A stretch of 16,684 bases of DNA from a virus. Taxonomy: Duplodnaviria > Heunggongvirae > Uroviricota > Caudoviricetes. Below the pieces are notes generated by a model. That model was not told the origin of the DNA. It did not search any database and saw nothing but the letters and a program-made list of their open reading frames with translations. A program made the translations under genes and the position numbers. Shown one piece after another: positions 14,154-16,684 of the stretch. The stretch lies in the IMG/VR virus record IMGVR_UViG_2526164618_000010. The stretch is one strand, 5' to 3'. The stretch's first letter is position 1. Each line of letters starts with the position of its first letter.

Positions 14154-14230
14154 ATGAACACCAATTATGAAGCCACTGTTGCAACTACTGATAACATTGT
14201 TCACGAGGTTTACCTGGAAGGAAAGCATAT
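14154..14230 (+). pseudogene. 5' part (26 codons) of an 82-codon gene X split by IS600
   Basis: Strong SD TAAGGAG 7 nt upstream; MNTNYEATVATTDNIVHEVYLEGKH(I) runs into the IS600 terminus at 14231. The remainder is at 16222-16393 on the other strand. Confidence 0.5.
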
Positions 14231-14294
14231 TGAGGTAGCCTGAGTTTAACGGACACTCCTTCCTGAAATAGAATGGCATCAGAAGGAGCTAATA

Positions 14295-14597
14295 ATGAGC
14301 AGAAAAACCCAACGTTACTCTAAAGAGTTCAAAGCCGAAGCTGTCAGAACGGTTCTTGAAAATCAACTTTCGATCAGTGAAGGCGCTTCCCGATTATCCC
14401 TTCCTGAAGGCACTTTAGGACAATGGGTTACCGCCGCCAGAAAAGGGCTCGGTACTCCTGGTTCCCGCACGGTGGCTGAACTGGAATCTGAAATTCTGCA
14501 ACTGCGTAAGGCGTTAAATGAAGCTCGCCTTGAGCGCGATATATTAAAAAAAGCAACAGCGTATTTTGCACAGGAGTCGCTGAAAAATACGCGTTAA
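14295..14597 (+). CDS. IS600 orfA (100 aa)
   Basis: MSRKTQRYSKEFKAEAVRTVLENQLSISEGASRLSLPEGTLGQWV…; HTH plus leucine-zipper region typical of IS3-family OrfA. Confidence 0.9.
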   Translation: MSRKTQRYSKEFKAEAVRTVLENQLSISEGASRLSLPEGTLGQWVTAARKGLGTPGSRTVAELESEILQLRKALNEARLERDILKKATAYFAQESLKNTR

Positions 14598-14632
14598 TCG
14601 AACAATGGCGACAACAATTTCCCATTGAAGCG

Positions 14633-15424
14633 ATGTGTCAGGTATTTGGTGTATCCAGGAGCGGTTATTACAACTGGGTACAGCATGAACCCTCAGACAG
14701 AAACCAAAGTGATGAGCGGCTAAAGCTGGAGATTAAGGTGGCACATATCCGCACTCGCGAAACATATGGAACCCGGCGGCTCCAGACGGAGCTGGCAGAG
14801 AATGGCATCATCGTTGGTCGTGACCGACTGGCACGTCTTCGTAAGGAGCTGAGGCTACGCTGTAAGCAGAAACGCAAGTTCAGAGCGACTACGAACCCGA
14901 ACCACAATCTGCCAGTTGCGCCAAATCTGCTGAACCAGACGTTCGCTCCTACAGCACCAAATCAGGTCTGGGTGGCGGACCTGACGTATGTTGCTGGCAT
15001 CAAAGATGTTTATACGTGCGAAATTGTCGGCTACGCCATGGGAGAGCGCATGACAAAAGAGCTGACAGGTAAAGCCCTGTTTATGGCGCTCAGGAGCCAG
15101 CGCCCACCTGCCGGGCTAATCCACCACTCTGATCGAGGTTCACAGTACTGCGCATACGATTACCGGGTCATACAGGAGCAGTCTGGTCTGAAAACATCAA
15201 TGTCGCGTAAAGGTAACTGTTACGACAACGCTCCGATGGAAAGCTTCTGGGGAACGCTGAAAAATGAGAGCCTGAGCCACTATCGTTTTAATAACCGGGA
15301 TGAAGCCATCTCAGTAATACGGGAATACATTGAGATTTTCTACAATCGTCAGCGTCGTCACTCTCGTCTGGGGAATATCTCCCCGGCAGCCTTCAGGGAA
15401 AAATATCATCAGATAGCTGCTTAA
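14633..15424 (+). CDS. IS600 orfB (DDE transposase domain); true N-terminus supplied by -1 frameshift from orfA
   Basis: ORF track 263 aa with …VWVADLTYV…HHSDRGSQY…MESFWGTLKNE… The frame is open upstream to the orfA overlap. Confidence 0.85.
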   Translation: MCQVFGVSRSGYYNWVQHEPSDRNQSDERLKLEIKVAHIRTRETYGTRRLQTELAENGIIVGRDRLARLRKELRLRCKQKRKFRATTNPNHNLPVAPNLLNQTFAPTAPNQVWVADLTYVAGIKDVYTCEIVGYAMGERMTKELTGKALFMALRSQRPPAGLIHHSDRGSQYCAYDYRVIQEQSGLKTSMSRKGNCYDNAPMESFWGTLKNESLSHYRFNNRDEAISVIREYIEIFYNRQRRHSRLGNISPAAFREKYHQIAA

Positions 15425-15467
15425 AAAAAGAACAAATGGTAGTGTCCGCTATTGCCAGTACACCTCA

Positions 15468-16093
15468 GCCTTAATTGCATCAGTCAGGCGGAGCAGGGCG
15501 GCATTATCCAGAGTTGTCGGTTCTGCCATGCCGCGTATGGCCAACAGCAGATTCTGGACATAGCTGTTTTCCTGATCCATCTCAAGAGCAGTAATGTGTT
15601 TGCGTTGTTCACGGGTGGCATGATGCAGGTATTTCAGATCCCCGGCAGCATACGTAAAAATGTGCAGAAGACGCTGTGTGAACCGCAAAGTGGCTACAGA
15701 GACTTCGCAATCCTGGCAATCCTCGTGGGCGTCTGCCTGCGCGTTTTCTTCCTGGCCTCCCGCCAGTTCTTTGGTTTCTTGAGCATTATCCTGGTGGTGA
15801 ACGTCGTCTGGCGCTGCTCCCGGTTTTAGTTCCCATGTCATGGAGTCTTTGCTGAGTTGATAGCGTTCACTCCAGGTAAAATCGATCTCACCTTCAGGGG
15901 GAAGGTCATTAACGACAGGAAAATTTGTGGCAACAGCTTTAAAATAGTTGCTCAGTTTTTTACCTGACTTAACGAGCAGATAGTCCAGAGTGGTGCTGGT
16001 CGATTCAAAATCGTCGCTTGCCCACAGGACGACGTCAGGTTCACCGGATGATTTTTTCGCTTTCCGTAACAGGAAGAGTGGTTTTGTGCTCAT
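15468..16093 (-). pseudogene. recE: recE (exonuclease VIII) N-terminal fragment, about 209 native codons, 3'-truncated by IS600
   Basis: [96 protein letters not shown]… matches the Rac RecE N-terminus from memory. The last five codons and the stop of track ORF 15449..16093 lie inside the IS600 terminus. Confidence 0.65.
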
Positions 16094-16163
16094 TGTTTTT
16101 TAACCTCAACTCAGATTAAAATTACTGCGAGTGATGAATAAATGTCCCAGGTTCTTCACTCAG

Positions 16164-16194
16164 GCCTGCACACTGTGCAGGCTTTCTTTTTTTC
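16164..16194 (+). terminator. intrinsic terminator on the plus strand (antisense to recE and gene X)
   Basis: Stem GCCTGCAC (16164-16171) / GTGCAGGC (16175-16182) with 3-nt loop, followed by TTTCTTTTTTT. Confidence 0.5.
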
Positions 16195-16221
16195 AGATTT
16201 CACCTTTTAATTTCATTGCAA

Positions 16222-16393
16222 TCAGATTTGCCAGAAATTCGGCTTTTTTTCTGCGGGCAGATTATTTCCGATGTAAACTAGGCACATTTTTGTGGCACCT
16301 TCAACAAGAGTTTTAAAGTTTCCTGATAGACCGTCGATATCAACTACAGTGAATGGGGTTTCTTTATTTTCTGTTTTAATTACGTAGCCAATA
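16222..16393 (-). pseudogene. 3' part (56 codons) of gene X, displaced and inverted relative to its 5' part at 14154-14230
   Basis: IGYVIKTENKETPFTVVDIDGLSGNFKTLVEGATKMCLVYIGNNLPAEKKPNFWQI*. The first 11 residues of track ORF 16222..16425 ([11 protein letters not shown]) are encoded by the IS600 terminus. Confidence 0.5.
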
Positions 16394-16684
16394 TGAGGTG
16401 TACTGGCAATAGCGGACACTACCATTTGTTCTTTTTTTAAGCAGTCATCTGATGATATTTTTCCCTGAAGGCTGCCGGGGAGATATTCCCCAGACGAGAG
16501 TGACGACGCTGACGATTGTAGAAAATCTCAATGTATTCCCGTATTACTGAGATGGCTTCATCCCGGTTATTAAAACGATAGTGGCTCAGGCTCTCATTTT
16601 TCAGCGTTCCCCAGAAGCTTTCCATCGGAGCGTTGTCGTAACAGTTACCTTTACGCGACATTGATGTTTTCAGACCAGACTGCT
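16394..16684 (-). mobile_element. second IS600 copy, inverted orientation, continues beyond the window
   Basis: 16394-16430 is the reverse complement of the right end of copy 1 (TGAGGTGTACTGGCAATAGCGGACACTACC…); orfB C-terminus at 16437..16661 is near-identical to copy 1. Confidence 0.85.
16437..16684 (-). CDS. IS600 orfB, C-terminal part (gene continues past window edge)
   Basis: …MSRKGNCYDNAPMESFWGTLKNESLSHYRFNNRDEAISVIREYIEIFYNRQRRHSRLGNISPAAFREKYHQMTA*. The frame stays open to base 16684. Confidence 0.85.
   Translation of the reverse strand, partial: QSGLKTSMSRKGNCYDNAPMESFWGTLKNESLSHYRFNNRDEAISVIREYIEIFYNRQRRHSRLGNISPAAFREKYHQMTA

Follow-up and report, generated by a model that had tools for sequence, protein, structure and literature searches.

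The DNA analyzed here, IMG/VR record IMGVR_UViG_2526164618_000010 (16,684 nucleotides; hereafter the window), comes from Shigella flexneri, where it forms the early-left end of a decayed lambdoid/Rac-like prophage. In it, the adjacent genes racC and recE have been broken and rearranged around two inverted copies of the insertion sequence (IS) IS600. The explanation that we consider very probably correct as a whole is that three IS600 insertions, one in racC, one in recE and one in a tail fiber gene at the other end of the prophage, exchanged flanks by homologous recombination while the prophage decayed. The window is the entire draft contig AFHA01000024.1 (GCA_000213435.2) and its right end falls inside the second of the two IS600 copies, so that the sequence beyond that copy had to be sought in other genomes. 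The original prediction, made from the window alone, had proposed a single inversion between the two copies as the full history of the locus, and it was at that outer edge that the proposal failed: the flank there is not recE, and the remainder of recE lies on a third copy of IS600.

IS600 copy 1 (14231–15467, plus strand) is present from its left inverted repeat (IRL), which starts TGAGGTAGCC, to its right inverted repeat (IRR), which ends ACACCTCA, while IS600 copy 2 (16394–16684, minus strand) is inverted and represented by its IRR-proximal 291 bp, the contig ending inside it. Copy 1 has the two open reading frames (ORFs) typical of the IS3 family, orfA (14295–14597, 100 amino acids, HTH_Tnp_1) and orfB (14633–15424, 263 amino acids, rve/DDE type); PF01527, PF13276, PF00665 and PF13683 are recorded for the same IS600 genes, and matching DNA carries the RefSeq label "IS3-like element IS600 family transposase". 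Both ends of the element, whose length is about 1264 bp, read TGAGGT... A length of 1264 bp had been attributed to copy 1, but in the window it measures 1237 bp because of an internal, in-frame deletion of 27 bp at 14993/14994 (IS positions 763–789) that corresponds to nine codons of orfB just after the WVADLTY motif. In complete genomes copy 2 is a full 1264-bp element, as is copy 1 in many strains. The 291 bases of copy 2 differ from the matching end of copy 1 at two positions. Over the full 1264 positions the IS600 copies show only three differences, which makes them well suited to homologous recombination with one another; these three single-nucleotide polymorphisms were too few to map the crossovers.

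The segment between the two copies (15468–16393) is 926 bp long, and the short sequences that abut the IS600 ends record its origin. The trinucleotide TAT at 14228–14230, immediately outside copy 1, is the exact reverse complement of ATA at 16391–16393, immediately inside copy 2, as had been noticed in the original prediction. Neither copy has matching flanks, copy 1 being bordered by TAT and GCC and copy 2 by ATA and CAT. Inverted repeats bracket the segment and their unmatched flanks pair across the copies as reverse complements, which is the pattern expected of an inversion by homologous recombination. There are 3-bp target duplications of TAT at racC and of GGC at recE, and the uninterrupted sequence of an enteroinvasive Escherichia coli (EIEC) strain, described below, has one copy of each. 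For the insertion in the tail fiber gene, one side of the target (CAT) was found.

The gene interrupted at the left of the segment, which had been recognized as occupying a racC-like position but not identified, is racC. Its 5' part (14154–14230, plus strand) comprises codons 1–25 plus two nucleotides, is preceded by an AGGAG ribosome-binding site 6 nucleotides upstream, ends with one copy of the TAT duplication and runs directly into copy 1. Its 3' part with the stop codon (16222–16393, minus strand) lies on the opposite strand beside copy 2, starting at the second copy of TAT (read as ATA at 16391–16393), and continues the 5' part in frame exactly as had been proposed. Joining 14154–14230 to the reverse complement of 16222–16390, with one TAT dropped, gives an uninterrupted ORF whose peptide is the one originally written out, although it is 81 amino acids plus a stop codon in length rather than 82 amino acids. 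The identification, made by sequence comparison, is that the rebuilt product shares 81% amino acid identity over 79 residues with K-12 RacC (b1351; E = 2e-45) and matches phrog_4778 (E = 2.8e-42). It also matches NF007306 (E = 2e-41), where its score of 140 bits is under the curated cutoff of 171 because the C-terminus of racC is frameshifted; no Pfam family matches it. In addition, the gene order ydaE–racC–recE is common to K-12, the EIEC strain and other E. coli.

The frameshift lies in a run of adenines in the 3' part (window 16243–16249), which is A7 in S. flexneri and in EIEC FDAARGOS_944 versus A8 in K-12 and in NZ_OZ040973.1. This single-nucleotide difference gives a product of 81 amino acids versus 91 for the intact gene, so that racC is a pseudogene here irrespective of IS600, and RefSeq marks the EIEC racC as "frameshifted". 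Since the EIEC strain has the same A7 frameshift, racC was probably already a pseudogene before IS600 arrived.

The remainder of the segment is occupied by the 5' part of recE (15468–16093, minus strand), comprising codons 1–208 plus two nucleotides of a 646-amino-acid RecE-family gene, and by the intergenic spacer between racC and recE (16094–16221, minus strand), which is inverted together with both of its neighbors and is collinear with the spacer of the EIEC strain and of other E. coli. The claim that the interval between the inverted IS600 copies holds, in inverted orientation, the 3' half of the split gene together with the first 208 codons of recE was therefore borne out. The recE frame stays open into the end of copy 1, giving an ORF of 214 amino acids (15449–16093), and residues 2–182 match PF06630 (Exonuc_VIII) with 226.9 bits versus a gathering cutoff of 25 (E = 3e-67). 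At the copy 1 end of this part stands GCC (15468–15470), which on the other strand reads as GGC, the target duplication. The 5' part is collinear with recE of the EIEC strain, and the gene is incomplete in the window, with the codons after 208 lying behind another copy of IS600. In this type of prophage (locus L001, 6628–8302) recE is followed by gam and then by an AAA ATPase gene, not by recT, and the EIEC reference annotates its recE as incomplete. S. flexneri, S. sonnei and S. boydii commonly carry intact RecE paralogs of 646 amino acids with 95–97% identity. A protein search with the 3' part of recE gave partial proteins only; one of them, named as S. flexneri and with 92% identity, was considered as the missing half and rejected, since its upstream extension is K-12-type sequence and it belongs to a different, K-12-like recE paralog.

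The uninverted arrangement was looked for in related strains and is widespread. In 276 complete E. coli genomes the rebuilt 1254 bp (ydaE, racC and the 5' part of recE) form a single collinear stretch, and the best match, to EIEC FDAARGOS_944 (NZ_CP065613.1), covers 100% of the query at 99.7% identity and is ungapped across the junction. As judged from these alignments, the join between the two halves of the ORF goes far beyond what chance could provide, and the ancestral order that had been expected, with racC followed by recE on one strand of an early-left operon, is the order in the EIEC strain and in other E. coli. The prophage of FDAARGOS_944 lies between ybhA and pgl (4.286–4.329 Mb) and is nearly intact, with the order ybhA, int, xis, DUF1187, AAA ATPase, gam, recE, racC, ydaE, rha ... 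cI, cro, ydaT, followed by ... QueH, hokD, Q region, lysis, head, tail, tail fiber, DUF4376, ipaHb and pgl. It shares with the S. flexneri remnant 99.1–99.7% identity over common blocks, the chromosomal site, the racC A7 frameshift and the ipaH cargo beside pgl, and differs from it in having no IS600 at any of the three sites and in being collinear and nearly complete. As such, it serves as a model of the ancestral state.

The racC–recE pair of the K-12 Rac prophage (b1351–b1350) is another known system for comparison. It has the order ydaE, racC, recE and the N-terminal domain PF06630 in common with the S. flexneri locus; however, both genes are split in S. flexneri, where racC is frameshifted in addition. 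Other differences are that the K-12 recE coding sequence is 2601 nucleotides long, versus the 646-amino-acid type of recE here, and that the K-12 Rac site is beside ttcA, versus ybhA/pgl for the prophage described here.

To see beyond the end of the contig, the 214-amino-acid ORF in which the recE 5' part runs into IS600 and a 67-amino-acid ORF in which IS600 runs into the racC 3' part were used for exact look-ups, which returned 20 chromosome-scale S. flexneri records, including that of 2457T (AE014073.1). If recE continued outside copy 2, as the original prediction held and had put forward as the point on which it should stand or fall, the flank there would read GGC AGTTTTCTC..., and this was never seen at that position. 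Instead, in 19 of the 20 chromosomes the outer junction of copy 2 is exactly CAT GTCTCTGGCG..., the start of a DUF4376 tail fiber ORF; in the remaining chromosome (L007) the IRL end of copy 2 is missing there. Beyond the DUF4376 ORF follow ipaH, pgl, ybhD, ybhH, ybhI and ybhJ, and DUF4376–ipaH–pgl marks the far side of this prophage. In the EIEC prophage the corresponding sequence, GCA-CAT-GTCTCTGG, is uninterrupted and has a single CAT (locus L012, 28963–28965). Since the flank is CAT plus DUF4376 and the EIEC site has a single CAT, the outer flank of copy 2 derives from a third IS600 insertion, located at the tail fiber end. Both copies are consequently hybrids: the racC insertion supplied the IRL flank of copy 1 and the IRR flank of copy 2, whereas the IRR flank of copy 1 stems from the recE insertion and the IRL flank of copy 2 from the tail fiber insertion.

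If each end of an IS600 element keeps the flank that it originally acquired, then a further copy should exist with its IRL against GGC and the 3' part of recE. The 28-mer predicted for this junction, AACTCAGGCTACCTCA-GGC-AGTTTTCTC, was sought after the prediction had been made and was matched exactly in IMG/VR record IMGVR_UViG_2537561620_000017 (locus L030, 9006–9033). The same 28-mer had no match in a collection holding one genome per species, a negative that is uninformative because that collection probably has no S. flexneri genome. The sequence beyond this third junction matches the EIEC recE 3' part, gam and ATPase gene with 99.6% identity and resumes in the xis/int region past an IS1-like insertion. 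The 926-bp piece ends ...AATTAAGGC and the third junction starts GGCAGTTTT; since both carry GGC and the EIEC strain has only one, GGC is a true 3-bp duplication. The duplication that had been postulated at the recE breakpoint is thus real, with its second copy sitting on a third copy of IS600. An ORF of 453 amino acids that spans the third junction is on record as "exodeoxyribonuclease VIII [Shigella flexneri]" and occurs in 35 contigs, the longest being 4,575,536 bp. This chimeric protein was found by exact look-up only, a similarity search with the full chimeric ORF having listed only the 646-amino-acid paralogs. A search with a chimera of the ATPase and IS1, together with related protein look-ups, gave a rearranged S. 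boydii locus and draft contigs of 1.7 kb, which were uninformative.

The insertion sites, the target duplications, the swapped flanks and the ancestral order are direct observations, and from them a history can be proposed. In this reconstruction, one IS600 (insertion A) entered codon 26 of racC with duplication of TAT, a second (insertion B) entered codon 209 of recE, 926 bp away, with duplication of GGC, and a third (insertion C) entered the start of the DUF4376 tail fiber ORF at target CAT, at the far end of the prophage and approximately 35 kb distant. The three 1.26-kb repeats would then have undergone homologous recombination, which we infer to have been of the RecA type, with the flanks being swapped in a three-way cycle, and because the breakpoints form such a cycle at least two reciprocal exchanges are needed. 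Copy 1 now pairs the IRL of A with the IRR of B, copy 2 pairs the IRR of A with the IRL of C, and the third copy retains the IRL of B, next to GGC and the recE 3' part, beyond which come gam and the ATPase gene and, at a greater distance, xis/int; its other end has been lost. Two routes could lead to this outcome: a large inversion and a flip of the 926-bp piece, in either order, or an exchange between A and C, which lie as direct repeats in the ancestral map, that excised a circle which then re-integrated at B. The flank sequences are compatible with both.

Comparison of the synteny with that of the EIEC prophage shows what has become of each block. Relative to the EIEC prophage, the Rz fragment is in the plus orientation, the block from hok to the racC 5' part in the minus orientation, and both the 926-bp piece and the block from DUF4376 to pgl in the plus orientation. 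Relative to the pgl anchor, then, the inverted part is the 8.9-kb block of early genes from hok to the racC 5' part, and the 926-bp piece keeps its ancestral orientation. The description of the locus as an inversion of the 926-bp segment is accordingly fair with respect to the racC 5' part, but not with respect to the chromosome. The late genes are gone, and the left neighbor is ycaD–dmsCBA–serS. Because the synteny shows Rz back in its ancestral orientation, loss of the late genes and this left neighbor, further IS-mediated events followed; those attributable to an IS629-like element, ISSfl3 and IS2 would have removed the late genes and moved the pieces further apart.

Several observations weigh against this history or leave a gap in it. 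Only the IRL-proximal 482 bp of the third IS600 copy are left, adjoining an IS629-like element, and owing to this truncation the last link of the three-way cycle is taken to have been lost rather than being observed; a search of IMG/VR for the predicted junction of the tail fiber gene, CAT and the IS600 IRR gave no match. Nor was any intermediate arrangement seen that would fix the order of events. Moreover, the recE 3' junction and the window arrangement come from IMG/VR records with different genome identifiers rather than from one and the same genome, so that their coexistence, like the order of the exchanges, is something that we infer. In the stretch with the truncated third copy (L030, 7233–9021), the IS629-like element has the ends TGAACCGCCCCGGG, and on its far side lies the replication region (a toprim protein and NinB) of the neighboring lambdoid prophage, which is found beside ybhC in the EIEC strain. 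Each flank of the element matches the EIEC map collinearly, giving the impression that the intervening 62 kb has been removed.

The arrangement seen in the window looks to be fixed across the S. flexneri genomes examined rather than being an active switch. The three junctions inside the window (racC 5' part with IRL, IRR with the recE 5' part, and racC 3' part with IRR) keep one order across all 20 chromosomes and two IMG/VR contigs, and the fourth, of IRL with DUF4376, is exact in all loci except L007. The only variation concerned the 27-bp deletion in copy 1, which, as judged from junction spacing, roughly nine of the 22 S. flexneri loci have and the others lack, and one genome with an extra IS inside the segment. 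The latter is a 1249-bp IS in the recE 5' part of L031 (IMGVR_UViG_2872192773_000003, ~4900–6150), near the position equivalent to window 15892–15904, and is the same element as that at window 4101–5348. The S. flexneri junction arrangement was absent from the E. coli genomes in the complete-genome collection.

Other explanations were weighed against the three-copy history. That two IS600 copies alone, one in racC and the other inverted in recE, underwent a single exchange which flipped 926 bp and left recE continuing outside copy 2 is very unlikely, even though it accounts for the TAT/ATA pattern and the restored ORF, and even though the GGC duplication at recE is real and such a flip may be one of the two steps. 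The sequence outside copy 2 is that of CAT, DUF4376, ipaH and pgl, exactly so in 19 of the 20 chromosomes read, and never recE; GGC and the recE 3' part adjoin a different IS600 copy; and the 926-bp piece is not the part that is inverted relative to pgl; one inversion between two copies therefore cannot be the whole history, and at least three copies and two exchanges are needed, with which the flanks fit. Much the same evidence bears on intramolecular transposition, in which the IS600 in racC would have attacked recE 926 bp away and generated the second, inverted copy and the inversion in one step, in the manner of IS26 or Tn3-type elements and with neither a separate insertion nor homologous recombination being required. 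This would leave the same signature (TAT ... GCC / ATA ... GGC), so that the flanks within the window are compatible with it, but it too predicts GGC and the recE 3' part outside copy 2, where they are not found, and would still require a further exchange with the tail fiber copy. Such a step is also unlikely for an IS3-family element, given that members of the family (IS911, IS2, IS3) move by a copy-out/paste-in pathway via a circular intermediate and not by Shapiro-type replicative transposition, and we regard this explanation as having only a slight chance of being correct.

Two inverted IS600 copies around a short segment could also suggest a composite transposon that inserted as a unit. 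The outer flanks, TAT and CAT, do not form the direct repeat that such an insertion would leave, however, and the left outer flank (racC 5' part) continues inside the segment (racC 3' part) rather than across it, which makes this origin improbable in the extreme. An assembly artefact deserves consideration in a 2011-era draft contig that ends inside IS600 and whose left 870 bp are plasmid DNA reached via an ISSfl3 repeat; nevertheless, the three junctions within the window recur in the same order in 20 independent chromosome-scale records, including the finished sequence of 2457T, and there is next to no likelihood that they are artefactual. A site-specific invertase was considered as well, since a partial DNA invertase gene lies beside ipaH in the EIEC prophage, and was rejected because every breakpoint is exactly at an IS600 end. 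As for a working switch, in which the 926-bp piece would still flip and alter expression of the recE fragment or of a neighboring gene, inverted repeats of 1.26 kb with ~99.8% identity and 926 bp apart could in principle recombine, but a single orientation was seen in the 22 loci, both genes in the segment are dead fragments, and no promoter or gene arrangement suggests a use, so that this is extremely unlikely. The broader proposal, that loss of racC–recE was selected in an ancestor of S. flexneri or that the piece still switches the N-terminal fragment of RecE, is highly unlikely; nothing was found to favor it, the segment having one orientation, racC having been frameshifted beforehand, and recE of the EIEC strain being annotated as an incomplete pseudogene.

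Other features of the window illustrate the extent of the decay. Upstream of racC is its neighbor in the early-left operon, ydaE (YdaE family; 13798–14079, plus strand), delimited by alignment to the 93-amino-acid YdaE gene of EIEC NZ_CP065613.1. It is a pseudogene in this strain, codon 35 having changed from CAG to TAG, and some other S. flexneri keep the 93-amino-acid frame; in other strains this gene carries a PF27493:YdaE record. Positions 1–870, at the left end of the window, are virulence-plasmid DNA that contains the 5' end of ospC4, with 99.8% identity to S. flexneri pINV and matches on plasmids only. This DNA meets ISSfl3 (IS66-like) at ~871, and pINV has the same junction between the ospC4-side DNA and ISSfl3. 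In the complete chromosomes the ISSfl3 copy beside the prophage remnant adjoins ycaD rather than ospC4 DNA, and because the two junctions conflict the left end is either a chimeric assembly through the 2.7-kb ISSfl3 repeat or a plasmid–chromosome cointegrate. The ISSfl3 ORFs at 953–3569 are broken (128/123 amino acids; 149/302/74 amino acids) and are intact in complete genomes at 224, 116 and 533 amino acids; the breaks are probably errors of draft sequencing. An IS2-like end fragment at 3601–3881 has 99.6% identity to the IS2-like copy at ~11157–11437, and after it (window 3601–4103) comes an 82-amino-acid fragment of the Rz lysis gene whose orientation, compared with the EIEC prophage, is opposite to that of the hok–QueH block. 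This orientation is a sign of another small, IS-bounded rearrangement.

Shigella is known for IS-driven genome decay, in which IS1, IS2, IS600, IS911 and others rearrange genomes and form pseudogenes, and the genome papers on S. flexneri 301 and 2457T and later population studies reportedly describe both IS-mediated rearrangement and pseudogene formation. The events described here resemble that process in that near-identical IS copies entered prophage genes and recombined, with inversions, deletions and translocations becoming fixed in the lineage; they do not differ from it in kind, and what is particular to this locus is that a three-way exchange of duplications (TAT, GGC and CAT) can be read from the flanks. 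There is also a likeness to the inversions that IS26 or Tn3-type elements make by intramolecular replicative transposition, where inverted IS copies flank an inverted segment and the target duplications are split and reverse-complemented. The differences are that IS600 belongs to the copy-out/paste-in IS3 family, that a third copy is involved and that the outer flank does not fit.

For annotation, the findings mean that the gene left unnamed in the original prediction and the called ORFs of 29, 67 and 214 amino acids are to be described as fragments of racC and recE. They also carry two lessons for work with draft genomes: a two-IS inversion model built from one contig may look complete and yet misjudge the sequence past the end of that contig, and a draft contig ending in an IS copy may be a chimera, which the left end of this one seems to be. 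According to one report (bioRxiv 10.1101/2020.06.22.160242), the retron toxin RcaT is blocked by RacC and triggered by RecE, which gives the racC–recE pair a reported role in the contest between phages and retrons.

In the S. flexneri prophage remnant, the outcome of the rearrangement is the permanent inactivation of racC, which was already frameshifted, and of recE. The feature is an ordinary product of IS600 insertion and IS–IS recombination in a decaying Shigella prophage and belongs to an already known kind of event, to which our analysis adds the identity of the split gene, a frameshifted racC, and an exchange of flanks among three IS600 copies instead of two. It matters little beyond bookkeeping, but it provides a clean worked example of how target-site duplications allow IS-mediated rearrangements to be reconstructed.

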